A program made the position numbers and the translations under genes. 64,000 nucleotides of DNA from Chloroflexota bacterium (lineage in GTDB: Bacteria > Chloroflexota > UBA11872 > VXNJ01). The notes under the pieces are model-generated. The model was not told the DNA's origin, ran no database searches, and worked only from the letters and a program-made list of their open reading frames with translations. Location: NCBI GenBank assembly GCA_965261345.1, contig OZ253449.1, positions 1,088,001 to 1,152,000 of the forward strand, written 5' to 3'. This document shows positions 4,769 through 40,100 of the stretch, piece after piece (positions within the stretch are counted from its first letter, which is position 1; every line of letters begins with the position of its first letter).

Positions 4769-6256
4769 GTGCGCACCCAGCTAACGATCGACCGACACAA
4801 CCAAATCGCCCGGGTCCAGCCCAAGCTCTATAGCCATTTCATCGAACACCTGGGCAATTGCACCTATCCCGGGATCTGGGTAGGGCGGCAGTCGCCAATC
4901 GCCGGCCTCGATGGTCTGCGCCGGTATACGGTCGAAAAGCTGCGCGGGGTCAGCCGGGGGACCGTCTACCGCTGGCCCGGCGGCTGTTTTGCCGACCATT
5001 ACCACTGGCGCGACGGCATCGGTGACCCGGCCGAGCGCCCGGTTACCCGCAATATCTGGTGGGGTGGACCGGAAACCAATCAATTCGGAACCCACGAATT
5101 CATGCGTTTTGCCCAGGAGCTGGAGGCCGACACCTATGTGTGCGGAAATATCGGCTCGGGAACACCTTCCGAAATGATGGATTGGCTCGAATACTGCAAC
5201 GCCGCCGAAGGCGAACACAGCCTGGCCCGGCAGCGGGCGGCCAACGGGCATCCCGCTCCATTCGGGGCCAAGTGGTGGGGAGTGGGCAACGAGAACTGGG
5301 GTTGCGGAGGGACCCTGCGGGCCGAAGAATACGCCGCCGCCTTCCGCCGCTACGCCAACTACCTGGGGAAAATCCGCCAGGGGGCCGAGCTGGTGGCGGT
5401 CGGGCACACGCCGGAGTGGAACCGACGGTTTCTAAGCGGGCTGCGCGGCGAGCGGTCTTTTGCCAATCTGGACCACCTCTCGCTGCATCGTTACCTCTTC
5501 AACGGCGGACCCGATGTGGGCTTTAGCGACGAGGACTATTACGCCTTGATGTCCGAGCTGCAGGTGGTTGAAGACGACCTTATCCGAGCCGATGGAATTC
5601 TGGCCCACCACGAGGATCCCGGCAAGCCGATCGGGATCGTATTTGATGAGTGGGGCGTATGGTGCCGCTCGGTGGCGCGCCCCGAAAATAGAGTTGAGCA
5701 GATAAACACCGTGCGCGAGGCGATTTGCGGGGCGGTAATGCTCGACTACTTTACGAACTATTCGCACCGGGTCGTAATGAGCAACGTTGCCCAGACTGTA
5801 AACGTGCTCCAATGCCTGGTGAAGGTCGACGGCCACGCCAACTGGACAACTCCCAACCTGGACATCTTCGAGTTCTACCGCTCGCACGTGGGCAACGATG
5901 CGGTCGCGGTTGCCGACGACGGCCCGTCGCTCTTCGCCTCCGGCGACGCCGGCCGGCCGGTCCGGCAGATCAGCGCCTCGGCCTCGATCGCCCCCGACGG
6001 ATCATCGGGCAGTCTCTGCCTAACCAACCTGCACCTGACCGAATCGATTCGGATCCGCGCCCGGGTGGTCGAATCCGGAGTTGTATCGTCCAGCGCTCTG
6101 GTTCTGAGCTCGGGCGACCCAGGTCACCACAACAGTGCTAACGATCCCGACCGGGTGCGATCGCAGATTCATCCCTCCCGGGCAATCGACGGCCAGCTGG
6201 AAATCGACGTCCCCCCGCACGCCACGGTGCAGGTGTGGCTTGAACTTGCCGCCTAG
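4769..6256 (+). CDS. Alpha-L-arabinofuranosidase, GH51
   Basis: FIEHLG, RWPGGCFADHYHWRDGIG, WGVGNENWGCGG (acid/base E), FDEWGVW (nucleophile E), AQTVNVLQ. Confidence 0.92.
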   Translation: MRTQLTIDRHNQIARVQPKLYSHFIEHLGNCTYPGIWVGRQSPIAGLDGLRRYTVEKLRGVSRGTVYRWPGGCFADHYHWRDGIGDPAERPVTRNIWWGGPETNQFGTHEFMRFAQELEADTYVCGNIGSGTPSEMMDWLEYCNAAEGEHSLARQRAANGHPAPFGAKWWGVGNENWGCGGTLRAEEYAAAFRRYANYLGKIRQGAELVAVGHTPEWNRRFLSGLRGERSFANLDHLSLHRYLFNGGPDVGFSDEDYYALMSELQVVEDDLIRADGILAHHEDPGKPIGIVFDEWGVWCRSVARPENRVEQINTVREAICGAVMLDYFTNYSHRVVMSNVAQTVNVLQCLVKVDGHANWTTPNLDIFEFYRSHVGNDAVAVADDGPSLFASGDAGRPVRQISASASIAPDGSSGSLCLTNLHLTESIRIRARVVESGVVSSSALVLSSGDPGHHNSANDPDRVRSQIHPSRAIDGQLEIDVPPHATVQVWLELAA

Positions 6257-6283
6257 AAGAGCCCCGATCCCAGGGACGACGCA

Positions 6284-7183
6284 GTGAAAATCCTGGTAAC
6301 CGGCGGCGGCGGTGACATCGGGTCGACGGTGGTGCGGCGGCTGATGGCCGACCACAACATCACGATTCTGGATCGGTCCCGATCGCCCGATCATCCCGAT
6401 CTGCCGCATTTGCTGGTGGACCTTGAAAACGCCAAAATGACCGCCTCGGTGGTGCGCGGGTTCGACCGGGTGGTGCATCTGGCCGCCATCCCCGACCCCT
6501 CATCGGGCCCGGCCGACGTCGTGTTTCGGGTAAATACGCTAACTACCTTCAATCTGCTCGAGGCTGTCCGCGCCAACCGGATTGCCCGGATCGTCTACGG
6601 CTGTTCGGAATCGGCTTCTGGATTTGGCATACACAACCGGCGCTTCAAGCCGCTGTATCTGCCAATCGACGAAAGCCATCCGTCGATCCCGCACGAAGCC
6701 TACGGATCGAGCAAATTGATCGGCGAGATCCTGTGTCGCCAATATGCCCACGCCTACGACATCGAAGCGATTTCCCTGCGCTACGCCTGGGCCTGGGGCG
6801 GGCGCCGCAACCGCGAAAGCTGGCTGAAGATCCTCTCCCGTGGGTCTGGCGGCGGGAGCAAGGACTGGTTGGGGGCCTGGATTGCCCATGACGATATCGC
6901 CCAGGCGGTTCAGCTGGCCTGCGAGTACCAGTTTCCGCTTCCGCTGCCGAGATTCGAGCGCTTTTACCTAACCGCCCGCGACAATTTCACCGACCTCGAT
7001 TCGCTGGCGCTGGCCAATCGCCATTGGCCGGTCGATCCACCCGAAATCGTTAAGCCCGAACTGTTTGCGCAGAATCCGCAGGCCTCGCTATTTGACCTGG
7101 ACAAGGCCAGGCGGCTGCTCGGTTACAGCCCGCAGGTCGCGATGGCCGATATGCGCTCCCGCTTCGGGGTAGAGCGGGCATGA
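6284..7183 (+). CDS. NAD-dependent epimerase/dehydratase
   Basis: ILVTGGGGDIG, VVHLAAIP, YGSSK (YxxxK). Confidence 0.88.
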   Translation: MKILVTGGGGDIGSTVVRRLMADHNITILDRSRSPDHPDLPHLLVDLENAKMTASVVRGFDRVVHLAAIPDPSSGPADVVFRVNTLTTFNLLEAVRANRIARIVYGCSESASGFGIHNRRFKPLYLPIDESHPSIPHEAYGSSKLIGEILCRQYAHAYDIEAISLRYAWAWGGRRNRESWLKILSRGSGGGSKDWLGAWIAHDDIAQAVQLACEYQFPLPLPRFERFYLTARDNFTDLDSLALANRHWPVDPPEIVKPELFAQNPQASLFDLDKARRLLGYSPQVAMADMRSRFGVERA

Positions 7184-8046
7184 GCGTGCGGATCGCTTTC
7201 CTGGCTGGACTGGGCTTTGCCTGCTGGCCGGTCGATCGGGTAGTTAAGACGCTCGGCGATTTGGGCTACGAGGGTATTGAATGGACGACCGCCCATTTTT
7301 CGCCGCGGGATCCGGCCAAGGCCCGCCGGGCGGTCGAGCTGACTCGCGGAGCGGGCCTTGAGGTTTCGCGAATCATGGCCCACGAGGATTTCGTCTGCCT
7401 AGACGATGCCGAACGCGAGCGTCGGATCGATGCGGTGATCGGTTCAGTTCAGCTCGCCGGCGAATTGGACGTTGCCACGGTCGGCTCGATGACCGGCCCG
7501 GCCCCCTGGGATCGCGGGGCTCCAAGGGTGGGCGTTGACATTGCCGAGGGCGAGGCCTGGGAAATGGCGCTGGACGCCCACCGGCGGATCGCCCGGGTCG
7601 CCGAACGAAGCGGGGTCACCATTTCGTCGGAGGGTGTGTTCGGAATGCTGGCCCACGATTTCTACTCGCACCGCTACCTGCTCGAACAGGTTGATTCGCC
7701 CGCGCTGGCGGTTAACTTCGACCCGTCGCACGGAATCTTAAGCGGCAATCTTGACATTGCCTGGATGATCGAACGGTGGGCGGGCAATATCGTTCACTGC
7801 CATCTAAAAGATGCGGTCGGGATTTCGCAGCGGGTTGGCGAATTCGTTTTTCCGCTTCTGGGCGAGGGTCGAGTTGACTGGACGGGCTTCTTCCAGGCCC
7901 TGGAGAAGATCGGATACCAGGGATTCGCCTCGGTCGAATTTGAAAGCTGGGACTATCTGCGTCAGGTACTTGGCAACGACCCGGCGCGCGCGGCGGCCAT
8001 CAGCATCCGCCAGGTAAGGGCGCTGCGCGAACAGGCCCGCGCCTAA
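7180..8046 (+). CDS. Sugar phosphate isomerase/epimerase (xylose isomerase-like TIM barrel)
   Basis: GYEGIE, NFDPSH, HCHLKD, LGEGRVDW, GYQGFASVEFE; ATGA overlap with upstream gene. Confidence 0.85.
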   Translation: MSVRIAFLAGLGFACWPVDRVVKTLGDLGYEGIEWTTAHFSPRDPAKARRAVELTRGAGLEVSRIMAHEDFVCLDDAERERRIDAVIGSVQLAGELDVATVGSMTGPAPWDRGAPRVGVDIAEGEAWEMALDAHRRIARVAERSGVTISSEGVFGMLAHDFYSHRYLLEQVDSPALAVNFDPSHGILSGNLDIAWMIERWAGNIVHCHLKDAVGISQRVGEFVFPLLGEGRVDWTGFFQALEKIGYQGFASVEFESWDYLRQVLGNDPARAAAISIRQVRALREQARA

Positions 8047-24264: not shown

Positions 24265-24645
24265 TCAGCTGACCGATTTTCGACCGGCAAACCCCTCTTG
24301 CGGATAGTGCCAATAGGTAATGTCGGGCTCGCCCAGGCGATAACACCAACAAACGTCGCGATCGGCTCTGCGGCCAGGGAAGTCGATGATTCCCTCATCT
24401 AGATCGCGAACCAACACTCCCTCAGCAGCGAGTTCAACCAGCAGATCGCCGACCGCTTGCAACAACTCGGGCAGACCCTTGGCCGGGCTGTCATCGCCAG
24501 AGAGACCTTCAATGGCCCGACCCCAAGCACGTAAATCGGCGCGGTGTCGGGCGATCTGGTCCAGGCGCTCGATCGTTGCCGGGAGCGCCGCGCGGGCCTC
24601 GGCCAGGCTGTAAACCCGGTCGCGGTCACCTGGCTTTCTCGGCAA
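24265..24645 (-). CDS. DUF2203 family protein
   Basis: YSLAEARAALP...VRDLDEGIIDFP...CWCYRLGEPDITYWH...GFAGRK. Confidence 0.85.
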   Translation of the reverse strand: MPRKPGDRDRVYSLAEARAALPATIERLDQIARHRADLRAWGRAIEGLSGDDSPAKGLPELLQAVGDLLVELAAEGVLVRDLDEGIIDFPGRRADRDVCWCYRLGEPDITYWHYPQEGFAGRKSVS

Positions 24646-24657
24646 CTTGCTAGTCAG

Positions 24658-25731
24658 CTATTCGTCGTCGTCGGGCGAGGACTTGCCGCCGCCGGCGAAC
24701 TTTGGAGGCTGGCGGTTCCAAGGGTTCCAGCCGCCCTTGTCGGCGATCATCATCTCGTCGGCGACAAGGCGTTGGAAGGCCGCATCGGATATCGCCGCGA
24801 CCTCGGCGAGGAGTTCATCCGACAGCTTCCACTCGGCTGCCCGGGCGGCGTCGTTAACCTCCGCGGGGGTTCGGAATCCAACCAGCGCGGTGGTAACGAC
24901 CCGGTGTGAGAGCACCCATGCCAGCCCCAGATCGGGCAGGGTGTGGCCCTCGCGTTCGGCAATCGCTCGCAACTCGTCCTGGGTCTGCACGTTCAGCGGG
25001 AAATGTTTTTTGCGATCAAAGAACGGCATCCCGAAGGCGTGCCCCGAATCTCGCCAATCCCAGGAATCAAACTCATGGTCGGCGGTCATGTTGCCGGCCA
25101 GCAGGCCATGGGCAAGCGAACCGTAGCTCATGATGCCAACCGCGTTTTGCTCGCACCATGGCATCACGTCGCGCTCGATCCGGCGCTCCAGCATCGAATA
25201 ACCCATCTGGTTGGCGACCAGTTTTACGTGCTTGGAGCATTCGTCCAGCATCTCCGGCATGAAATTGGAGACCCCGATGTAGCGGATCTTGCCGGCTTTC
25301 TGTAGTTCTTCCAGGGCCCGCATCGTCTGCTCAAACGGCGTATCGACGTCCGGCCAGTGGATCAGCAGCAGGTCGATGCGGTCGGTCTGCAGGTTTTTCA
25401 GGCTCTGTTCGCAGGATTCGAGCACGTGAGCGCGGGTGCCATTTCGCTCCATCCGTTTTTCGGCATCGTTCCAGGCGATCCCGCATTTGGTAACTATGAT
25501 CACCTGGTCACGGATCGGTTTCAGCGCTTCCCCCATGACCCGCTCGGAGTGTCCCAGTCCGTAACCGGCCGCGTTGTCAAAGCAGGTAACTCCCAGGTCG
25601 AATGCCCGCATCACCGCAGCCTGGCCCTCGCCATCGTCGACCGCCCCGTATTGGGTGCCCCCCATTGGCCAGCCGCCAAAGCCGACGACCGACACCTCTA
25701 GGTCGGAATCGCCAAACTTGCGATATTCCAT
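24658..25731 (-). CDS. Aldo/keto reductase
   Basis: MEYRKFG.SDLEVS, FDNAAGYG.GHSE, IVTKCG, DLLLIHWPD, GKIRYIGVSNF. Confidence 0.92.
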   Translation of the reverse strand: MEYRKFGDSDLEVSVVGFGGWPMGGTQYGAVDDGEGQAAVMRAFDLGVTCFDNAAGYGLGHSERVMGEALKPIRDQVIIVTKCGIAWNDAEKRMERNGTRAHVLESCEQSLKNLQTDRIDLLLIHWPDVDTPFEQTMRALEELQKAGKIRYIGVSNFMPEMLDECSKHVKLVANQMGYSMLERRIERDVMPWCEQNAVGIMSYGSLAHGLLAGNMTADHEFDSWDWRDSGHAFGMPFFDRKKHFPLNVQTQDELRAIAEREGHTLPDLGLAWVLSHRVVTTALVGFRTPAEVNDAARAAEWKLSDELLAEVAAISDAAFQRLVADEMMIADKGGWNPWNRQPPKFAGGGKSSPDDDE

Positions 25732-25867
25732 TGGTACCACCATTCCTTGCGGGCAGTTGCCCAATAACCAAAGCCCACGGGCGTTGAAACTCCTTGCCGA
25801 TTATTGACAATCCGGCCGCCGGGCCGGCCCGGCGCGGCCCCATTGCGCGGCCAGAATCGCGCGGGCC

Positions 25868-26428
25868 ATGATCGCGTTCTGGTTCAAGCTCGCCGCCGCC
25901 ACTGTGGCCGTTGCGCTGCTTTTGGCAGTCGTCTATCTGGTTTATCTTGCCTCGGTAGCCGGCCTGGTCCAGGTCCCGGCCCTTGCCGGAGTATCCGGCG
26001 AGAGCGCCGCCGCCCTGGGTGATTCCGGGGCTACCGCCACGCCGGCTTCGTTCACCCGGGTGCTGGAGGCCTCGGCGGTGGTCGAGAGCCCCCAGGGTTG
26101 GACCGATATCGGCATCTCAGCGGTGGCGTTCAATCATTACGTGGCCGCTAGCGGCCGGGCGAGCCCGCAACTTGAATGGGCGCGGGCGCGGGTGGCCGGT
26201 GCCAGCGTGGCGGTCGAGGGCGAGCTTCGTGGGCACCTAAACGTCCCTTTCGCCGGCCATTTACAAACCAGCGTCGAAGGCCAGGAATTGATCCTGCATC
26301 TGGCAGTTGAACGATTCGGCGTCCTGCCGCTCCCGCAGCTCCTGTTCGGCGACGGCGTACAGGTGCGCGTTCCCGCCAGCCGGTTCCTGCTCTCACTGCT
26401 CGGCCTCGGCCGGGCGGCGGTGGGGTAG
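25868..26428 (+). CDS. Hypothetical membrane-anchored protein
   Basis: N-terminal hydrophobic helix; fills the gap and converges on the cNMP-binding protein gene. Confidence 0.55.
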   Translation: MIAFWFKLAAATVAVALLLAVVYLVYLASVAGLVQVPALAGVSGESAAALGDSGATATPASFTRVLEASAVVESPQGWTDIGISAVAFNHYVAASGRASPQLEWARARVAGASVAVEGELRGHLNVPFAGHLQTSVEGQELILHLAVERFGVLPLPQLLFGDGVQVRVPASRFLLSLLGLGRAAVG

Positions 26429-26429
26429 C

Positions 26430-27425
26430 TTAAACCGGGTGCTGGTCGGACCGCTTGAGCCAGTTGACGCTGGTGGCCTTGGTCCCGCGGACCAGGCGGC
26501 GCACCTCGGCCCGGCGGGCAGTCGGCAGATGCTGTTTTTCCAGCCAGGCCCGCGAAGCTACGTACTTGGTCATTGCCACCTCGATCGGCAGGCGCGAATC
26601 CGGAAATTGCGCATAGAAATCAAGTAGTTTCTCACGCTGGATTGTCAGGGTCGACAGCGCCGTTATCGCCTGCACGGTGGCCGGGCGGGCGGTTTGCCCC
26701 AGCAGGGCCAGCTCGCCAAAATGGTCGCTTTCGTCCAGCTCGTGATATCGCGTCCGTGGTCGGCCCTGGCGCCGGTCATAGCTGACCACATCGAGGAGCG
26801 CCCGACCACGCCGGATATAGTGCAGGTCGACGCCATAGTCGCCCTGCCGGAATACGAACCGGCCGGCTGGAAAGTGGCCCCAGGCAAATCTTTGTGCCAG
26901 CGACTCAAGCTCGTTGGCCGACAGATGCGAGAAATAGTCCAGTTTGCGCAGATAGGCAGTCAACACGGTTCGTAGGTACGACTCGTTTAGCGCCCGGACA
27001 AGCTCGGATTCCTGTCCGAGCGGGCCCACCAAGCGCGACAGATCCAGCACCAGGATTTCACTGCCCGTTTCGGTGACCGCCAGGATCGGATCCGGATGTC
27101 CGATCGCACTTTCGAAATTTCCAAATACCGCAAGCTCTCCGACCACCCGGCCGCGCCGCTCGCGCTCATCGGGGTGCGAGGGCGTCGAAATCCGCACCTT
27201 GCCGGTCGCCACCACGTAGAGACTGTGATCGCCGATCCCCGGTTCGGTGATGACGGTGTTGGCCGGCGAGACCAGCAAGGTGCCGCGGCGCGCCAGTTGA
27301 CGCCGCAAGTTCGGCGGCAGCGAATCGAATATCTCGATCTCCGCCAGCGCCTCTTCAAACCTTCCGGTGCGAATCTTCCAACCCAGTGCCCGGACGGCGT
27401 AGGAGAGCGAGTCAATCAGCCCCAA
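26430..27425 (-). CDS. Tandem cyclic nucleotide-binding domain protein
   Basis: Two CNB domains: LYVVATGKVRI...VFG (degenerate cassette) and VFRQGDYG.DLHYIRRG...HFGELALL...RPATV (canonical); GAGGAG SD right after the pafA-like stop. Confidence 0.85.
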   Translation of the reverse strand: MGLIDSLSYAVRALGWKIRTGRFEEALAEIEIFDSLPPNLRRQLARRGTLLVSPANTVITEPGIGDHSLYVVATGKVRISTPSHPDERERRGRVVGELAVFGNFESAIGHPDPILAVTETGSEILVLDLSRLVGPLGQESELVRALNESYLRTVLTAYLRKLDYFSHLSANELESLAQRFAWGHFPAGRFVFRQGDYGVDLHYIRRGRALLDVVSYDRRQGRPRTRYHELDESDHFGELALLGQTARPATVQAITALSTLTIQREKLLDFYAQFPDSRLPIEVAMTKYVASRAWLEKQHLPTARRAEVRRLVRGTKATSVNWLKRSDQHPV

Positions 27426-27442
27426 AAACTCACACTCCTCTT

Positions 27443-28999
27443 CTAAGGCTCTTCTATGGCGCGGTCGGTCGGTTCAACGTCCTCGTCTGGTCCTCCCGCC
27501 GGCGGCAGCGCCCGCAGGAAATCGCCGATCTCGTCAGCGAATTCGCTTGACTGGTCATCGTAGCACTGGAACGGGTCGGCAATGCTTAGAACCTTCCCGT
27601 TTACGGCGATCGATTCCCAGTCCAGCACATACGGCACCAGATCCCAGACCCCGGCTGCGGCCACCTCCCGCCAACCGTCAATGTAGGAATAGACGCGGTA
27701 GAGGCGACCTTCCCAAAGTGCGTAATCTGATAGTCCGTGGCGCAATTCGGACCAATCGACGTGTTCGGCCGCGTCAGCCTTAGCCAGCGCCCGCAGGACC
27801 TTGGCGCGGGCATGGGCGCGGGTGTCCAATGGCGGCTCGGAAACCGCCCGCTGGGCCACCGGGGTCGGCAACAGGAAGCGCATCCGGGAATGCTCGCGCA
27901 GCGCCGTAAATACGCTCTGGCGGGGGTCGATGATGTGGTATGCCTGATCCACCTTGAGCAGATCACGGTCGCTCCACCCGAGGGAGCTGCCGTCGGCAAA
28001 TTCGCTAAGCACCTTCTTTTTGGAAACCCAGTCCAAATGGCCATCTAGCGTCATTGGATCAGATTCGAGCTGATCTAGGACCTGTTCCCAGTTCTCAAGG
28101 GTCCATGCGGTATCGGCATCTCTGCCCGCAAACCGCCGGGTGGCCTCGTTGAGGTATTGGCGCTGCACGTCAACCGCCGCAATCGATCCGTAGCGCTCCT
28201 CCGAGACAGTCCAGTCGCCCACCGTGTTGGCGGCAATTTGGCGCAGATCGCGCACCGGCGCTTCAAGCTGGAGCGATTGCGACCAACCGGCGTCGAGCAA
28301 CTGGGCCACTAGGGCGGTGGTGCCGATCTTGAGGGCAGTGGCAAATTCAGACCGATTGCAGTCGCCGATGATCACGTGTAGGCGCGGCCGGGAACCCAAC
28401 GGCTCATCGCGCAAGTTGATGATCGGGCGGCCGCCGTAGCGCACCCGCCGTGAAACGCCCACATCGGCGAATCCGGCGCGCTGGCTCAGTTGGTATTGCC
28501 CGGGCCGGCCGCGCCCGGAAAAACTGATCAGGCCGGCACCGGCAAAGATCTGGCGGGTCACCAGAAAGGGCATTAGCCCGGAAACTACCGTCTCGTCGTC
28601 GGGACGGCGGCGCATCGAATAGCTCTCATGGTACCCGAAGGTGTTGCCGCAGTAGTCGGTGTTGCTCTTGACAAAGTAGATCGGGTCCTGCCGCTGCAGG
28701 CGTGCAAGTGTTTCCAGCAGAATCGGTTCGATCGCCAGCTCATGGGCCACCAGAGCGGCCAGGCTGCGGCATTCGGCAGTGGCGTATTCAAGGTGCCCTG
28801 AGTCGATCAGCAGGCGCCCGCCGTTGAACAGGAACCCGCCGTTGGCCGGGGTTTCGCCCCACTCGCGCGGCGCCGGGTCGACGACCCCGTAGCGGTATCC
28901 GTCAAAGATGTCGGTCTTGACCAATGCCGCCGCCAGCTCCGGTTCCACCGCACCGGTTACTCCGAATTCGATCTCGGTGCCGAACAGGGCATCTTGCAT
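27443..28999 (-). CDS. pafA: Pup/UBact-protein ligase, PafA family
   Basis: FGTEIEFG, FLFNGGRLLIDSGHLEYATAEC, NTDYCGNTFGYHESY, PFLVTRQIFAGAG, LSQRA, RPIINLRDEP, RLHVIIGDCN, LKIGTT, PPLDTRA, DPF; no Dop loop. Confidence 0.85.
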   Translation of the reverse strand: MQDALFGTEIEFGVTGAVEPELAAALVKTDIFDGYRYGVVDPAPREWGETPANGGFLFNGGRLLIDSGHLEYATAECRSLAALVAHELAIEPILLETLARLQRQDPIYFVKSNTDYCGNTFGYHESYSMRRRPDDETVVSGLMPFLVTRQIFAGAGLISFSGRGRPGQYQLSQRAGFADVGVSRRVRYGGRPIINLRDEPLGSRPRLHVIIGDCNRSEFATALKIGTTALVAQLLDAGWSQSLQLEAPVRDLRQIAANTVGDWTVSEERYGSIAAVDVQRQYLNEATRRFAGRDADTAWTLENWEQVLDQLESDPMTLDGHLDWVSKKKVLSEFADGSSLGWSDRDLLKVDQAYHIIDPRQSVFTALREHSRMRFLLPTPVAQRAVSEPPLDTRAHARAKVLRALAKADAAEHVDWSELRHGLSDYALWEGRLYRVYSYIDGWREVAAAGVWDLVPYVLDWESIAVNGKVLSIADPFQCYDDQSSEFADEIGDFLRALPPAGGPDEDVEPTDRAIEEP

Positions 29000-29005
29000 G
29001 CGGGA

Positions 29006-29197
29006 CTACTGCCCTCCCGGTTGCGGCGTGGGGTTGGGAATCTCACGAATGATTCGCCGCACCCTCTCGCCTAGCTCCTCTTCCTCGCTCTTGTCCGGCG
29101 AATGGGCGGGGTCCTCGGTCTCGGTTTCCGGTTTACTCGGAGCTTCAGTTTCCAACCCGATGCGGACGCTCAACATGGCGCGTTGCTCTGCTTTCAA
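29006..29197 (-). CDS. Pup/UBact-like prokaryotic ubiquitin-like modifier ending in GGQ
   Basis: 63 aa from TTG 29197 (GGAGGA SD at 29207-29212); acidic, Pro-rich, disorder-like composition; C-terminal PGGQ; lies between dop-like and pafA-like genes. Confidence 0.8.
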   Translation of the reverse strand: MKAEQRAMLSVRIGLETEAPSKPETETEDPAHSPDKSEEEELGERVRRIIREIPNPTPQPGGQ

Positions 29198-29255
29198 TTT
29201 GCCCCATCCTCCAACGCCGGACGGATACCATGGCACCCGTCATTAGATAACATTT

Positions 29256-30800
29256 TCAACCAACGACAGCTTCGGACCCCATAAGCGCCCCGACTAGTTC
29301 GTCCACGTCGGCGGCCGCCTCAACCTTTTCGGCCAGGGCTGCAATAGTTCCCGAATGGACCTGCGAGAGGTCCAGGTGAAACCGCCGGCCGGAAATTTCA
29401 AGCGTCGCCGAATCCCATTCCATCTCCTTGACGTGGCCGCCAAAGTGCGAGATAAGCCTTCCGCGCAGGCGCGCCCGCGTGTCGCCGGGCGGTTGTTTGA
29501 GGTGGGCCCGGGCTTCTGTGGGGTCAAGCAGGGTGCCGATTCGACCCTCGGCCACCAGCTGGTCATAGATCGAATACCTTGGGTCAAGGTAGTGGTAGGC
29601 GACGTCTAAGCGCCGCAGTGTTTCGGCCGGCAGGCCTGCCTGGCCGGGTGCGACTTGCTCAATCAGCTGCAATTTGGCGCACCAGTCGAGGAAATCACCG
29701 GCACCCTCCGGATCGCGACGTAGCAGATCGAGCAGGCGTCGCCACTCGGCGGCAATCCAGTCGCGCTCCGGTCCGCGCAGATCGGCTTCCTCAATCGCCT
29801 GCAGGTAGATTTCCAGCACGTCGAGCATCCCCAACTGGCCGCGCGAGGTCGGCACCATGGCGCAAAGCGCGGGGTCGCGTGAAAACGTCCGGATCGCCTG
29901 CAGCGGGTCGTTGAGGGCGATTCGGAAGTCGTGCCCCTGTTCGACTAGGTCCAGCACCAGCGAGGTCATTCCCACCTTGAGCGCCGTCTGTAGCTGGCTG
30001 CGGTTGGCATCGCCGCAGATCACGTGCATCCGGCGATAGGCCCGGCGGTCGGAATGCGGCTCGTCGCGGGTATTGAAAATCGGACGCTTTGCAGTCGTAT
30101 TTATCCCGGTTATCTGTTCAAAAAAATCGGCCCGCTGGGAAATCTGAAAAGTTACCGCCGGGTCGGCGAAGCGGCCCTCGCTGCCGGCCTTACCGGCACC
30201 GGTCAGGGCGATTCGCGAGACCAGGAAGGGCACAGTCTGGGCGATTAAGAAATCCATCCCGACCGACCGGTTCAAAAGGTAGTTTTCATGGGTTCCGTAT
30301 GAACGGCCGTGATAGTCGGTGTTGTTCTTGACCAATAGCACCTCGTCGGTCGAGCGGGCGTTGCGCTGGCGCTGACAGGCAAGTAGGAGTTGTTCGCCGG
30401 CGGCGTCCTGGCGGGCGACCTCGAATGCCGAACGGGTGGCATCGGTGCAGTACTCGGGATGGTTGTGGTCGTTGTAAAAGCGCGCGCCGTTGGGCAGGAT
30501 CGTATCGGCGATCAGCTCGGCCCGGGAGAGCCTGGCACTCTCGCCCGCCACCGCGGCCAGATCGTGCGGGTCGCGGGCCAGGCGGTGACGCCGGCCGAAG
30601 AAATCCAGGCGGCCGTCCTCGCCCGAATAATCCCAGCCGCGATGAATCGGACGCAGGCAGAGCGAGCGGACCAAGGTCGAGGCCAGGAACCCAAAATCCA
30701 CTGGCTCGGCAAAACCCTGGCAGATCATCCCGTATTCGGTCTCGATTCCCATTGGGCGCAGCCCGCCGAGTTGACCGTTTGGCAGCTGGAAGGCGGTCAC
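29256..30800 (-). CDS. dop: Pup deamidase/depupylase, Dop family
   Basis: MGIETEYG, Dop-loop-like WDYSGED, LPNGARFYNDHNHPEY, KNNTDYHGRSYGTHENY, ISQRADFFE, TTAKRPIFNTRDEPH, RRMHVICGDAN, PPGDTRA. Confidence 0.88.
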   Translation of the reverse strand: MTAFQLPNGQLGGLRPMGIETEYGMICQGFAEPVDFGFLASTLVRSLCLRPIHRGWDYSGEDGRLDFFGRRHRLARDPHDLAAVAGESARLSRAELIADTILPNGARFYNDHNHPEYCTDATRSAFEVARQDAAGEQLLLACQRQRNARSTDEVLLVKNNTDYHGRSYGTHENYLLNRSVGMDFLIAQTVPFLVSRIALTGAGKAGSEGRFADPAVTFQISQRADFFEQITGINTTAKRPIFNTRDEPHSDRRAYRRMHVICGDANRSQLQTALKVGMTSLVLDLVEQGHDFRIALNDPLQAIRTFSRDPALCAMVPTSRGQLGMLDVLEIYLQAIEEADLRGPERDWIAAEWRRLLDLLRRDPEGAGDFLDWCAKLQLIEQVAPGQAGLPAETLRRLDVAYHYLDPRYSIYDQLVAEGRIGTLLDPTEARAHLKQPPGDTRARLRGRLISHFGGHVKEMEWDSATLEISGRRFHLDLSQVHSGTIAALAEKVEAAADVDELVGALMGSEAVVG

Positions 30801-31549
30801 CCGGCGACCTCGGCCAGCTCAAGCAGATGCGCCCGCGGGCGACAGCGCAGTCGCAGCGGAATTCCGGACCAGCCGAGGCCAATGCTTACGTGGCAGAGCC
30901 GGCCACCCAGGACCATCACCCCATCGGCGGCCGGCAATCGATTGCGGGTGTTGGTCGGGGTCGGCAACATCGGGATGTTGAGTTGGCCCCCGTGGGTATG
31001 GCCCGAAAGGGCCAGGTCGCAGCGGTAATCGCCCACATCAAATACACCGTCCGGTGAATGGGTCAACAGAAGGGTGCCGAGGCCCTGGTCTGAACCGGCG
31101 TAGGCACTTGCGATATCGTGGCGTGCGCGATGCGGGTCATCGGTGCCGATCAGGTTCAGCCTCCGGTCGCCAATCCGTACTTGGACCGACTCGTTTACCA
31201 GCAACCGTACCCCGCTGGCGGCCAAGACGTTGACAACTTGCCCCGGGTCCAGCAGCAGATCGTGGTTGCCGAGGCAGGCGAATGCCCCCAGGCGCGGCCT
31301 GATTCGACCAAGCGCCCGGGCGGTTTCGGCCAGGGCCGGGCCATTTTCAGCGATGTCGCCGGTAACGCACAGGAGATCGCAGGCGACCGGGGCCAAGGAC
31401 CGCAGAGCGCGCGACGGGAAATCGTCGGCGCTACGGGCATGAATGTCTGAGACATGCAAGATCGAAATCCCGGCCAACCCCGAACCATTGGGGAGCGGCA
31501 GGAGGATTTTCTCCAGGATATTCCCGGCCCCCGGACTTGTTTGGTTCAT
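30797..31549 (-). CDS. Calcineurin-like metallophosphoesterase (YkuE/YaeI-like)
   Basis: SDIH, TGD, LGNHD, LTHSPD, LSGHTHGGQ; 4-bp overlap with the dop-like start. Confidence 0.88.
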   Translation of the reverse strand: MNQTSPGAGNILEKILLPLPNGSGLAGISILHVSDIHARSADDFPSRALRSLAPVACDLLCVTGDIAENGPALAETARALGRIRPRLGAFACLGNHDLLLDPGQVVNVLAASGVRLLVNESVQVRIGDRRLNLIGTDDPHRARHDIASAYAGSDQGLGTLLLTHSPDGVFDVGDYRCDLALSGHTHGGQLNIPMLPTPTNTRNRLPAADGVMVLGGRLCHVSIGLGWSGIPLRLRCRPRAHLLELAEVAG

Positions 31550-31599
31550 ATTTGTCTATTGAATTGATCGACCCGATTACCTAGAAAGTTTGACCGCAT

Positions 31600-32649
31600 A
31601 TGGACTCCGGCCACATCTCCAAGATCGGTATCCTCACCGGCGGGGGCGATTGCTGTGGGCTCAACGCTGCAATCCGTGCGGTCGTCCTGCTGGCACATCG
31701 TCGCTCGTGGAGCGTGCGCGGCTACCTAGACGGCTGGGCCGGGGCGGTGGCCAACCATTGGCGTGAGCTAACTCCGGACGCGGTGGCTGAGATCATCTAC
31801 CAGGGTGGGACTATGCTGGGCACCTCGCGCACCGATCCGCGTTCCGACGCGAGCGCATATGCCCGGGTCGAGGCGCTCTTCGCCGATGGCGGGATCGACG
31901 CCCTGGTTGCCATCGGCGGCGACGATACGCTATCGGTGGCGGCTCAACTGGCCGCCGATGGCAACCCGGTCGTCGGCGTTCCCAAGACGATGGACAACGA
32001 CGTTACCGGCACCAACTACTGCATCGGTTTTCACACCGCCATTACCCGCGTTACCGAAGCCATTGACAGCCTGCGCACCACCGCCGCATCGCACAGCCGC
32101 GCGATCGTTGTGGAGACGATGGGCCGCGACGCCGGCTGGGTCGCTGCTTATGCCGGGATCGCCGCCGCGGCCGACTTCGTCCTCCTGCCGGAAAAAGCGA
32201 CCGCGATTGCGGATGTAACCAACGCCCTGGCGCGACGCCATAGCCGAGGGCAGCGCTACGCCCTGGTGGTGGTGTCAGAAGGCGCCCAGGTCTTGGGCCT
32301 TGCGGCGCCGGCGGCGGCGGCGGACGCCAACGACCAGTTCGGGCACACGCTCCTGGCCACCCGTCAGCTGGGGGCCAGGGTGGCGGCCGCCATCGATGCC
32401 GCCACGCCGTATTCAACCCGCGAGGTGGTCCTAGGTCACACCCAGCGCGGCGGGATCGTAAGCGCCTATGACCGGGTGCTCGGAACCCGCCTCGGACGCG
32501 GCGCGATCGTCCTGGTGGAGCGCCGCCATTGGGGGTACATGCCGGCATTGATCAATCAGGCGATCGCCGATTTCCCGCTCGCCGCCGCGGTTGGGACCAA
32601 CCGCAAATTGATTCCCCAGATGCTCGACGTCATCGAGGACTTCCAGTAG
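31600..32649 (+). CDS. 6-phosphofructokinase, PfkA family, PPi-type signature
   Basis: GILTGGGDCCGLNA, GGTMLGTSR, GGDDT, PKTMDND, ETMGRDAGW, LGHTQRGG. Confidence 0.9.
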   Translation: MDSGHISKIGILTGGGDCCGLNAAIRAVVLLAHRRSWSVRGYLDGWAGAVANHWRELTPDAVAEIIYQGGTMLGTSRTDPRSDASAYARVEALFADGGIDALVAIGGDDTLSVAAQLAADGNPVVGVPKTMDNDVTGTNYCIGFHTAITRVTEAIDSLRTTAASHSRAIVVETMGRDAGWVAAYAGIAAAADFVLLPEKATAIADVTNALARRHSRGQRYALVVVSEGAQVLGLAAPAAAADANDQFGHTLLATRQLGARVAAAIDAATPYSTREVVLGHTQRGGIVSAYDRVLGTRLGRGAIVLVERRHWGYMPALINQAIADFPLAAAVGTNRKLIPQMLDVIEDFQ

Positions 32650-34563: not shown

Positions 34564-36618
34564 TCACTGGGCCGTGACCGCGTGCGCTTCCACCGTAAAT
34601 CGCCCGTCGTGGAAGTCCACTGCATAGCAACGGTCATCGTCGGGACCGGCGGCAATTAGCGCGGAAGCTAGTGCTTGCTCGATATCGTGCTCGATGATCG
34701 CCCGCAGCGGACGAGCCCCTTCCCCGGCCGCCAATGCGCGCCGAACCAACTCTCCGAGCACCACGCCGGCAATCTCAACCTCTTGGCCAAGGGCGGCGAG
34801 TCGTTTGGCCATCGCCGCGAGCAGGCGGCGGGCAATTTCGCGGAAATCTTCCTCACCAAGGTCGGCCAACGGAACGATCCGGTCCAGCCGATTGACAAAT
34901 TCGGGCGATAGCCGCCGACGCATATCGTTCGCCAAACGGACCGGGTCGGATGCCGGCGAGCGACCGCCGGCGGGATTGGCGAACCCGATCGTCCCGCCCG
35001 AGCGGCTGCCCACGGTTGAAGTTAGCAGGATGATCGCCTGGGCAAAGCTGGCGCTGCGCCCGCCGGCATCGGTCAATTTGCCCGAGTCCATGATCTGCAG
35101 CAGCAACGAAAGCACCTGCGGATGGGCCTTTTCAATGTCGTCGAAGAGAACCACCGAATGCGGATCGCGTCGGATGGCCTCGGTCAACCGACCCGCTTCC
35201 TGATAACCCACGTATCCCGGCGGGGCGCCGATCAGGCGCGAGGTCGAGAACGGCTCCGATAGCTCGGACATGTCGATGCGGATCAGTTTGTCACGGCTGC
35301 CGGAAACAAATTCGGCCAGCAGCCTGGCCATTTCGCTCTTGCCCACCCCCGACGGCCCGAGCAGCAGCAACGACCCGATCGGCCGCTCGGGCGCCTTGAG
35401 CCCGGCCGCAGCCCGCTTGAGCGAATTGGCCACCTGTCGGATGGCGTTGCCCTGGCCGATTAAGCTTTGGCCCAACTTGGCTTCAAGTTGCAGATAGCGG
35501 CCCGACTCGGCCTCCGTCAGGTCAGCCATGTTAATACCGGTTGCACTGGCGACGACCTCGGCTATGGCCTTGTCATCGATCGGGGTCGCGCTTTGCTGCA
35601 ATTGTTTGTACCAACCGCGGCGGGCCACGATCAGTTTTTCGCGCAACCGCGACTCGGCCGCATATTCCTCCAGGAGAAGTTCCTGGTTGTCGCCCTCCAC
35701 GGCTAGCTCGGAACGCCGCTTGCGGAAAGTTGCCACCTGGCGGCGCATTGCCTTGATTTCCTCCGGGGGCACCAGGCGGTCGGATTTACGCCGGGCCAGC
35801 GCCTCGTCGATCAAGTCGATGGCCTTGTCGGGAAGTCGGCGGTCGGTAATGTACCGGTCCGAGAGCCGGATGGCGGCGGTGATCGCCGAATCGGCAATCG
35901 GCAGGCCATGAAATTCTTCATAGGTCTCGCGCAGTCCCTCCAGCACCGCCCGCGTCTGGTCCAGGTCGGGCTCTTCCACCGCTACCGTTTGGAAGCGGCG
36001 GTGGAGGGTCGCGTCGCGCGAAAAGTAACGCCGGTACTCGTTCCAGGTGGTGGCCCCGATAACTCGGATCTTGCCGCGGGCCAGGGCCGGTTTAAGCAAC
36101 CCGGCTGCGTCCAACGTGCCACTGGCCCCTCCGGCCCCCAGAATCGTGTGGATCTCATCGATAAATAGGACCACATCACGCGCTTCGACCACCTCTTCTA
36201 GGAGTTCCTTGACCCGTTGTTCAAATTCACCGCGATACCTGGCGCCAGCCACCATCGCCGCCAGATCCAGGGTTATGAGCCGGGTTTCGAGCAACTGCAC
36301 CGGCACCGAACCACTTACGATCTTTTGCGCCAGTCCCTCAACGATCGCGGTCTTGCCGACCCCGGCGTCGCCCACCAACAGCGGGTTGTTCTTGTTGCGC
36401 CGCAGCAGGATTTCGGCCACCCGCATCGTCTCGGCCGCGCGCCCAACCACTCGATCAAGCCCGCCGGCGCGAGCCCGTCGGGTCAGATCGGTCCCATACT
36501 GGGCCAGCCGGGAGATGCGTTCGCGACCTTTTCCGCGGCGTTGTTGCCCGGTTCCCGAGCCGCCCGGAGAGCGCGAGCGCATCTGCCAGGGCCCGCGTCG
36601 AGTTTGGAGGGAGCCCAA
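34564..36618 (-). CDS. ClpC-like AAA+ ATPase lacking the Clp N-terminal domain
   Basis: KNNPLLVGDAGVGKT, GARYRGEFE, FIDEIH, LPDKAIDLIDEA, coiled M-domain, GPSGVGKS, GAPPGYVGY, IGF loop, GARPLR. Confidence 0.88.
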   Translation of the reverse strand: MGSLQTRRGPWQMRSRSPGGSGTGQQRRGKGRERISRLAQYGTDLTRRARAGGLDRVVGRAAETMRVAEILLRRNKNNPLLVGDAGVGKTAIVEGLAQKIVSGSVPVQLLETRLITLDLAAMVAGARYRGEFEQRVKELLEEVVEARDVVLFIDEIHTILGAGGASGTLDAAGLLKPALARGKIRVIGATTWNEYRRYFSRDATLHRRFQTVAVEEPDLDQTRAVLEGLRETYEEFHGLPIADSAITAAIRLSDRYITDRRLPDKAIDLIDEALARRKSDRLVPPEEIKAMRRQVATFRKRRSELAVEGDNQELLLEEYAAESRLREKLIVARRGWYKQLQQSATPIDDKAIAEVVASATGINMADLTEAESGRYLQLEAKLGQSLIGQGNAIRQVANSLKRAAAGLKAPERPIGSLLLLGPSGVGKSEMARLLAEFVSGSRDKLIRIDMSELSEPFSTSRLIGAPPGYVGYQEAGRLTEAIRRDPHSVVLFDDIEKAHPQVLSLLLQIMDSGKLTDAGGRSASFAQAIILLTSTVGSRSGGTIGFANPAGGRSPASDPVRLANDMRRRLSPEFVNRLDRIVPLADLGEEDFREIARRLLAAMAKRLAALGQEVEIAGVVLGELVRRALAAGEGARPLRAIIEHDIEQALASALIAAGPDDDRCYAVDFHDGRFTVEAHAVTAQ

Positions 36619-40024: not shown

Positions 40025-40100
40025 GGGCCGGTAGCTCAGTTGGTAGAGCAGCGGACTTTTAATCCGTTGGTCGTGGGTTCGAATCCCACCCGGCTCACCA
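40025..40100 (+). tRNA. tRNA-Lys (anticodon UUU)
   Basis: 76-nt cloverleaf: GGGCCGG acceptor, AGCTCAGTTGGTAGAGC D-arm, GCGGA-CTTTTAA-TCCGT anticodon arm, GGTTCGAATCC T-arm, encoded CCA. Confidence 0.97.

Follow-up and report, generated by a model that had tools for sequence, protein, structure and literature searches.

We analysed a 64,000-nucleotide stretch of the genome of a Chloroflexota bacterium (contig OZ253449.1, positions 1,088,001 to 1,152,000), referred to below as the window, and found that it carries two adjacent genes of the Pup-ligase family separated by a gene for a small protein that ends in Gly-Gly-Gln. The same three genes recur across the bacterial class to which the organism belongs, the small protein is under selection, and the genome encodes neither the Mpa/ARC unfoldase nor the 20S proteasome. 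The arrangement is best explained as a class-wide Chloroflexota variant of Pup/UBact-type tagging that would have been cut to three genes and uncoupled from the proteasome. In the current understanding, pupylation and UBact tagging direct bacterial proteins to the proteasome; to our knowledge, the only exception that has been studied, Corynebacterium, depends on the ARC unfoldase all the same.

The original prediction described a minimal module of deamidase-like, modifier and ligase-like genes. Our analysis supports this description, as both enzymes are members of the Pup_ligase family (PF03136) and the modifier gene stands between them. The Dop-like enzyme (29256-30800, minus strand; 514 amino acids from a GTG at 30800, with an alternative ATG at 30752) scored 416.6 bits and the second enzyme (27443-28999, minus strand; 518 amino acids) scored 342.3 bits, both far above the gathering cut-off of 25 bits. 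No further Pup_ligase gene is present in the genome. The modifier, which we call the tag in keeping with its predicted role, is encoded at 29006-29236 on the minus strand and has 76 amino acids when read from a GTG or 56 when read from an ATG at 29176. This ATG opens the protein just ahead of the part that is kept in relatives and is the likely start, giving a tag of 56 residues. The gap between the Dop-like gene and the tag gene is 19 nucleotides (nt) with the GTG or 79 nt with the ATG, and neither corresponds to the spacing of about 60 bp that had been proposed; the distance from the tag gene to the gene for the second enzyme, 6 nt, had been given correctly.

The distribution of the enzyme pair was examined in an even sample of the phylum and in the class. 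In the phylum sample, 31 of 301 genomes contained the pair, the window genome being counted. Carriers in this sample were confined to three families, which we designate f1 (5/5 genomes), f2 (16/18) and f3 (9/9), and the pair was found in none of 268 genomes from the 65 other Chloroflexota families sampled. Within the class, the pair was present in 93 of 98 genomes and in 19 of 20 genera, with family counts of 16/18 for f1, 35/38 for f2, 1/1 for f69, 9/9 for f70, 14/14 for f71 and 17/17 for f3. The module was also present in a metagenome-assembled genome (MAG) labelled Thermoflexus hugenholtzii, a species for which PMC8129789 describes a cultured strain. As the module is class-wide, the inference of a minimal tagging module with no proteasome is stronger than could have been known from the window, and we conclude that it is a lineage trait and not a split locus.

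A small protein ending in ...RIIREIPxPTPQPGG[Q/E] was encoded between the two enzymes in all 30 Chloroflexota loci that contained both; one more locus stops at a contig edge. All 27 distinct tag sequences ended in GG[Q/E], the final residue being Gln in 8 and Glu in 19. Their alignment contained 14 invariant columns, and the invariant residues were specified by two to four different codons. Over the final 22 codons the 27 distinct copies showed 2898 synonymous and 1339 non-synonymous codon differences. When the same 22 codons were read in the two shifted frames the corresponding values were 278/4274 and 297/4060. As the synonymous excess occurred only in the tag's own frame, we conclude that the tag ORF (open reading frame) is translated and constrained as a protein. 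In its N-terminal half the tag is acidic, with abundant Pro, Thr and Glu (in residues 8-34, Pro, Thr, Glu, Ser, Lys and Ala account for 93% of the positions and the net charge is -6); this half is followed by the short basic segment RRIIREI and a Pro-rich tail that ends in GGQ. Trypsin cleavage after the last Arg is predicted to leave the tail remnant EIPNPTPQPGGE.

The C-terminal GGQ and the location of the gene between the two enzymes are Pup-like traits, and to this extent the modifier had been correctly described as Pup-like; the models for Pup and UBact did not recognize it. The window tag had no match at E<=10 to either Pup model (PF05639, TIGR03687) or to the UBact model (PF20513), and the UBact C-terminus ...RQRSG[E/Q] is absent from it. 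Searches of Pfam and NCBIfam at the same threshold identified no family, as only chance-level entries for FtsA_C and GPS2_interact were returned. The query for these searches began one codon after the ATG at 29176, which has no influence on the outcome. Two further Chloroflexota tags gave no score in the Pup model test; control Pups from the Corynebacterium and Poribacteria loci, with 46.6 and 71 bits, exceeded the cut-off of 41.45. Comparison of profiles with hhalign gave probabilities of 1.2% for the tag against 14 Pups, 1.4% against 27 UBact sequences and 1.8% against a class of tags ending in RQxGG[Q/E]. UBact and Pup were likewise not linked to each other by this test (1.5%), so the blank result for the tag points to a distinct sequence family and not necessarily to a separate origin.

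When a profile of the 27 tags was searched against 1.84 billion proteins, 25 representatives were recovered, 24 of which were 55-100 amino acids in length, nearly all with the match at the C-terminus. Sixteen representatives were read, and the same tail was present in all but two broken ones. A word-based search of 5.8 billion proteins found five, none with an informative name. The ESM Atlas contained an entry neither for the tag nor for one homologue, and in public annotation the tag is either unnamed or not called as a gene. On the basis of these comparisons the tag is a new family that is distinct in sequence from the Pup and UBact models.

The window genome is a single contig of 2,393,548 bp with a completeness score of 95.36%. 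No match to the 20S proteasome family (PF00227) was found anywhere in this genome, nor was there any match to the WYL domain (PF13280); the latter result indicates that a PafBC-type regulator is absent. Three proteins, two FtsH and one ClpX, matched the Mpa/ARC model TIGR03689 (pup_AAA), and the top score of 143.9 bits, obtained with FtsH, compares with a cut-off of 504.75. The earlier observation that arc/mpa, prcA/prcB and pafBC are missing from the 64 kb therefore holds for the entire genome, and the canonical arc-prcBA cluster that had been named beforehand as refuting evidence was not found in it.

Similar results were obtained for the class. None of the 98 genomes had a pup_AAA match above the cut-off, and only two, G323 and G356, had a match at E<=1e-55. 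The match in G323 was nearly full-length (453 bits), making this the single class genome with such an Mpa-like ATPase. The matches in G356 covered the AAA core only, in a 721-residue protein with two AAA domains that is encoded on a contig other than that of its module. PF00227 matches were found in 12 of the 98 genomes, in 11 of which, those of L027, L028 and L031 among them, they were single weak matches of 22-46 bits; three that were examined were ORFs of roughly 250 amino acids. The weak matches from the window genome's own order sit far from the tagging module, and among the 12 PF00227-positive genomes 20S genes were found inside the conjugation locus only in G323. One genome, G005, has a weak PF00227 match yet contains no Pup_ligase gene.

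Positive controls were recovered with the same models. A Poribacteria genome contained an Mpa gene (701 bits) and two 20S genes within its dop-pafA locus, and three genomes with a Pup-related tag contained nearly full-length Mpa-like ATPases of 256-332 bits. In exactly one of 14 control genomes was pup_AAA above the cut-off, and Corynebacterium glutamicum was among the genomes with matches. As Mpa and 20S are lacking class-wide, we conclude that their absence is a property of the lineage rather than an artefact of this assembly. The possibility that the module is part of an ordinary Pup-proteasome locus that has been split, with arc and prcBA located elsewhere in the genome, is thus hardly credible: PF00227 matches number zero in the window genome, its pup_AAA matches are FtsH and ClpX only, and a full-length Mpa is missing from 97 of the 98 class genomes.

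The two enzymes retain 26 columns that are invariant in 22 Dop-type, PafA-type and related sequences, including D111, H114 and E116 of the first enzyme and the equivalent D66, H69 and E71 of the second. We take these columns to include the catalytic Asp and nucleotide-binding positions. The first enzyme scored 363 bits with the Dop model TIGR03688 (cut-off 492.3) and 265.7 bits with the PafA model, both values being below the equivalog cut-offs. Its best solved relatives were Dop structures (282 bits, compared with 168 for PafA). It also contains a conserved Dop-loop-type insertion that is longer than in actinobacterial Dop and that appears in the structural model (predicted template modelling score, pTM, 0.86) as a low-confidence loop at residues 57-84. 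Hecht 2020 (PMC7947786), in the part available to us, describes the Dop-loop as a segment of about 40 residues that is absent from PafA. These features predict that the first enzyme is a deamidase and de-conjugase of the tag.

Assignment of the second enzyme was ambiguous by score, with 266 bits for the TIGR Dop model and 260.8 bits for the PafA model TIGR03686 (PafA cut-off 551.3), again both below the equivalog cut-offs. It lacks the Dop-loop and possesses a PafA-like C-terminal DPF motif. A Foldseek search with its AlphaFold model (pTM 0.82) matched Dop (TMq 0.64-0.72) and PafA (TMq 0.64-0.71) about equally. Signature columns that separate Dop from PafA were also sought; only two passed a strict rule, too few for use. 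We predict that the second enzyme is the ligase of the tag, a prediction that rests on architecture and position and not on a diagnostic motif. Public annotation names the enzymes 'proteasome accessory factor A' or 'proteasome accessory factor PafA2 family protein'.

These data also bear on whether the module could be a decaying, functionless remnant of a Pup/UBact-proteasome system that has been lost. As such decay would predict, there is no proteasome arm, and 5 of the 98 class genomes lack the pair. However, the ORFs were intact and free of internal stops in every match listed, the 26 enzyme columns, which include the shared active-site positions, are invariant, the 14 invariant tag columns have undergone synonymous turnover, and only one of the 20 genera is without the module. 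A relic is therefore very improbable.

The origin of the enzymes was examined with phylogenetic trees. Row L075 and 13 loci were left out of the reduced trees, either for speed or because of a doubtful ORF start. In the free trees the second enzyme grouped with the Dop side and with enzymes from UBact loci. One contig of G323, a genome from another family of the same class, carries a locus of the latter type (L125, G323:C2:58000-72000). Its order is the Mpa-like ATPase gene, a Dop-like gene, a small ORF whose product ends in RYRQRSGE, a pair of 20S genes and a PafA-like gene. Homologues of this small ORF carry Pfam PF20513 and the NCBI name 'ubiquitin-like protein UBact'. Three lone PafA-like paralogues are encoded elsewhere in G323, on other contigs (L126-L128), and the PQPGG[Q/E] tag was not seen in the four regions of this genome that were examined (L125-L128).

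In the tree that included G323, the Chloroflexota second enzymes were sister to the second enzyme of the UBact locus together with its three lone paralogues, with a support of 99 in the Shimodaira-Hasegawa-like approximate likelihood ratio test (SH-aLRT), and the Chloroflexota first enzymes joined the same 21-row clade as their UBact-locus counterpart, with a support of 93. Approximately unbiased (AU) tests did not reject a single clade of all second genes, as expected from one ancient duplication (p 0.40 and 0.37). We had considered that a Dop-like gene might have been duplicated independently in Chloroflexota, because the two paralogues were joined in our first tree (SH-aLRT 90). This explanation was rejected, as each paralogue paired with its UBact counterpart once the UBact-locus enzymes were added; the AU tests were neutral on this point. 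The tree places the enzymes nearest to UBact-locus enzymes and not to actinobacterial Dop and PafA. The simplest interpretation of these relationships is a common ancestry of the module with a UBact-type system; the module would then have lost the ATPase and 20S genes, or never possessed them, and it employs a different tag.

Comparison with the known systems reveals both similarities and differences. The order of enzyme, small protein and enzyme is the same as in UBact loci, and it is to the enzymes of such loci that those of the module are nearest. However, the tag of the UBact locus in G323 ends in RYRQRSGE rather than PQPGG[Q/E], and that locus contains the 453-bit Mpa-like ATPase and two 20S genes, none of which has a counterpart in the module. 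In the 2017 description of UBact, these loci were reportedly said to carry Mpa-like ATPase and 20S genes as a rule.

The actinobacterial Pup system resembles the module in having two paralogous Pup_ligase enzymes, one with and one without the Dop-loop, and a small, probably disordered tag between them for which both Gln and Glu ends occur. It differs in that the module enzymes do not reach the equivalog cut-offs for Dop and PafA, the tag is missed by the Pup models, and the genome lacks Mpa, 20S and a WYL-type PafBC. In C. glutamicum, as in the module, the dop, tag and pafA genes are contiguous, with gaps of about 180-200 bp (L076, L089), and prcBA does not lie between them. C. glutamicum nevertheless keeps ARC and a canonical Pup, and the Chloroflexota class has neither. 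Sections of PMC8223512 describe a role for pupylation in Corynebacterium that is independent of degradation, in which the retained ARC unfolds pupylated ferritin.

The RQxGG[Q/E] loci (L099-L115) provide a further parallel, as there too, outside Actinomycetota, a small GG[Q/E] protein is encoded between the two enzymes of a pair. Their hosts are Acidobacteriota, Latescibacterota, Verrucomicrobiota, Planctomycetaceae, Myxococcota MAGs and unclassified bacteria. All three RQxGG[Q/E] tags tested were missed by the NCBIfam Pup model, yet this class aligned with Pup at a probability of 95% in hhalign. These loci therefore differ from the module in that their tags are Pup-related, and the three genomes tested contain the nearly full-length Mpa-like ATPases that served as positive controls.

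With respect to previously known hosts, the list in the portion of Hecht 2020 (PMC7947786) available to us comprises Actinobacteria and Nitrospirae, with sporadic occurrence in NC10, Armatimonadetes, Verrucomicrobia, Nitrospinae, Firmicutes, Proteobacteria and Planctomycetes; Chloroflexi are not named in that portion. A full-text literature search that combined pupylation, PafA, Dop or prokaryotic ubiquitin-like protein with Chloroflexi names yielded nothing on such a system, as judged partly by title and abstract. The terms Pup, pupylation, proteasome and ubiquitin were absent from a Thermoflexus genomics paper.

By analogy with these systems, we infer the following tagging chemistry. The 56-residue tag would be made with a C-terminal Gln in this genus and with a C-terminal Glu in most relatives. 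The Dop-like enzyme would deamidate the terminal Gln to Glu, and the second enzyme, which has no Dop-loop, would then use ATP to activate the gamma-carboxylate of the terminal Glu and join the tag to lysines of target proteins. The Dop-like enzyme could also strip the tag off again.

An alternative explanation is that no protein is tagged, and that the peptide instead serves as a scaffold or precursor, with a small-molecule amine or a second peptide being coupled to its C-terminal Glu by amidation. The pathway would then resemble that of a gamma-glutamyl ligase or of a peptide natural product, the Dop-like enzyme acting as the corresponding amidase. The fold is common to small-molecule carboxylate-amine ligases, and weaker fold matches were obtained with glutamate-cysteine ligase, YbdK and glutamine synthetase. 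In addition, strong conservation is limited to the final ~20 residues of the peptide, the neighbours in some subgroups encode small-molecule enzymes (CN_hydrolase), and a Peptidase_S9 gene is present in three of five congeners. On the other hand, all characterized Pup_ligase pairs that enclose a small GG[Q/E] or G[E/Q] protein are described as protein taggers (Pup, and UBact by annotation), the module is not accompanied by conserved biosynthetic genes, and the nearest enzymes reside in a locus with Mpa-like and 20S genes. We therefore consider amidation of a peptide scaffold to be improbable, and protein tagging to be the better explanation.

The genes that surround the module were compared among loci. 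The original prediction placed five co-oriented minus-strand genes within 26430-31549, and all five ORFs are present there. Upstream of the Dop-like gene is a gene for a YaeI-like metallophosphoesterase of 250 amino acids (30797-31549, minus strand; 40.6 bits with Pfam Metallophos, and 115.2 bits with NCBIfam YaeI, which is below the cut-off of 188). The 4-bp overlap reported between these two genes is correct if GTG 30800 is the start of the Dop-like gene; if ATG 30752 is the start, there is a gap of 44 nt instead. Downstream of the second enzyme gene, after a gap of 17 nt that agrees with the earlier value, is a gene for a protein of 331 amino acids with two cNMP_binding stretches (74 bits) and no output domain (26430-27425, minus strand), hereafter the cNMP (cyclic nucleoside monophosphate) protein.

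Only the three central genes were conserved across the Chloroflexota subgroups, and the flanks were otherwise unrelated. As the flanks differ between subgroups, we conclude that the three genes are the unit. The unusual partners thus lie outside the conserved core, since the phosphoesterase is a neighbour at the level of the family and the cNMP protein at the level of the genus. Elsewhere the neighbours were PCMT, CN_hydrolase, an iron-type alcohol dehydrogenase, Cys-tRNA ligase or UPF0182. Two of these are co-oriented with the module and lie upstream of it: a protein-L-isoaspartate O-methyltransferase at a distance of ~1.6 kb (L055:5574-6344, plus strand) and a carbon-nitrogen hydrolase at ~0.6 kb (L060:6519-7403, plus strand). 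The chemistry of both enzymes concerns proteins or amides. In one subgroup (L060, L063 and L072) at least 500 nt separate the tag gene from the gene for the second enzyme; elsewhere the distance is 6-30 nt.

In family f1 the row of genes consists of a Clp-type ATPase, accD, accA, PFK on the opposite strand, the phosphoesterase and the module. The phosphoesterase, for which no solved relative was found by sequence, is upstream of the Dop-like gene in the f1 loci, although in L052 it is ~5 kb away. In three of five congeners (L045, L046 and L049) a co-oriented gene for a Peptidase_S9 protein of 653 amino acids (prolyl oligopeptidase family) is inserted between the phosphoesterase and Dop-like genes, at 5899-7860 on the plus strand in L046; no homologue of it was found in the window genome. 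The presence of such a peptidase next to a tag with a proline-rich tail is curious.

In all five congeneric loci the cNMP gene comes directly after the ligase gene, and in at least four of them the two overlap by 4 bp; in another genus a homologue is located 2 kb further downstream. The cNMP gene encodes the sole PF00027 protein of the window genome. In the second domain the sequence FGELALLG...A.V, presumably a phosphate-binding cassette, is invariant in all six orthologues; the first domain is degenerate. Based on its adjacency within the same operon, the cNMP protein possibly gates the module in this genus, whereas the phosphoesterase is a looser neighbour. A pairing of the two as sensor and phosphodiesterase was also considered and set aside as speculative, as a class III cyclase is absent, no solved relative of the phosphoesterase is available, and the two genes are not conserved jointly beyond the genus.

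Farther downstream of the operon are an aldo/keto-reductase-like gene (24658-25764, minus strand), which occurs once in the window and as two to three tandem paralogues in congeners (L033-L035), and next after it a DUF2203 gene (24265-24645). A scan of 25500-32500 for promoters and terminators returned one promoter-like and four terminator-like sites, numbers that were not above those in shuffled sequences, and the sole Rfam match in the whole window was a tRNA at 40025-40097.

The Clp-type gene of family f1 is relevant to the fate of the tagged protein. Located on the strand of the phosphoesterase gene and 3 kb upstream of it (34564-36618, minus strand), the Clp-type gene encodes a two-ring Clp/Hsp100-type ATPase of 684 amino acids with AAA, AAA_lid_9, AAA_2 and ClpB_D2-small domains and no N-terminal domain. 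Two further paralogues with 44-46% identity are present in the window genome. It is our guess that this ATPase might read the tag. More generally, the same tagging chemistry could generate a degradation or unfolding signal that is read by ClpXP, Lon, FtsH or this nearby ATPase, with the disordered acidic Pro/Thr/Glu-rich half of the tag serving as the handle. The window genome encodes ClpP beside ClpX, three Lon-type proteases and two FtsH, and the Clp-type gene is syntenic with the module in f1, being full-length in 7 of 10 loci and partial in an eighth. Moreover, Pup systems without 20S still use the ARC unfoldase on tagged ferritin, according to sections of PMC8223512. However, no AAA+ gene beside the module is conserved across the class, accD, accA and the opposite-strand PFK gene stand between the Clp-type gene and the module, and the Clp-type gene is missing from the flanks of other subgroups, except that L067 has a partial match at its far end. 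Nor is any recognition motif known. For these reasons we regard an AAA+-read signal as rather unlikely.

The preferred reading remains that the module carries out reversible, non-degradative protein modification, which we hold with moderate confidence. As Mpa/ARC and 20S are missing from this genome and from nearly all of the class, and as the tag shows no detectable resemblance to Pup beyond the terminal GG[Q/E], a reversible mark of a regulatory or steric kind is most likely, rather than a ticket to the proteasome. Several results weigh against this reading. The AAA+ proteases of the window genome (ClpXP, the three Lon-type proteases and the two FtsH) could read the tag, as could the Clp/Hsp100-type ATPase that is encoded 3 kb upstream and has no N-domain. 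The absence of the proteasome arm depends on the sensitivity of hidden Markov models and on a genome that is ~95% complete. The second enzyme scores slightly higher with Dop than with PafA models, and likewise has 216.6 bits with solved Dop and 184.4 bits with solved PafA. Its alpha-loop (...VSRRVRYGGRP) is unlike that of either Dop or PafA; it is one residue longer, invariant within the group, and without the threonine pair that is common to Dop and PafA. According to the part of Hecht 2020 (PMC7947786) available to us, the alpha-loop segment and the Dop-loop decide between hydrolase and ligase, and in PafA the alpha-loop region is helical and includes Thr-Thr-x-Arg residues also present in Dop. 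This segment is of low confidence in the models of both enzymes, and in the second the predicted local distance difference test score (pLDDT) is <50 at residues 185-192. Control by a cyclic nucleotide, a possibility in this genus, has two points against it: the adjacency of the cNMP gene is restricted to one genus, making for a weak link, and no class III cyclase (PF00211) was found in the window genome.

A bolder reading is that PQPGG[Q/E] defines a further, as yet unnamed, family of prokaryotic ubiquitin-like modifiers beside Pup and UBact that acts as a purely regulatory, reversible mark on lysines, operates across the class without unfoldase or proteasome, takes its ligase from the UBact lineage and is gated by a cyclic nucleotide in this genus. 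We advance it tentatively, as a possibility less probable than reversible modification in general. The tag family has been missed by annotation pipelines, and the module adds Chloroflexota to the known range of Pup-like systems. As the second enzyme is Dop-like in spite of lacking the Dop-loop, it may be a natural counterpart to the engineered Dop-to-ligase conversions described by Hecht 2020 (PMC7947786). T. hugenholtzii includes a cultured strain, so proteomics on a culture would be possible. An entire class thus appears to keep a writer, an eraser and a selected tag in the absence of a reader or protease, which would make non-proteasomal roles of Pup-like tags directly testable.

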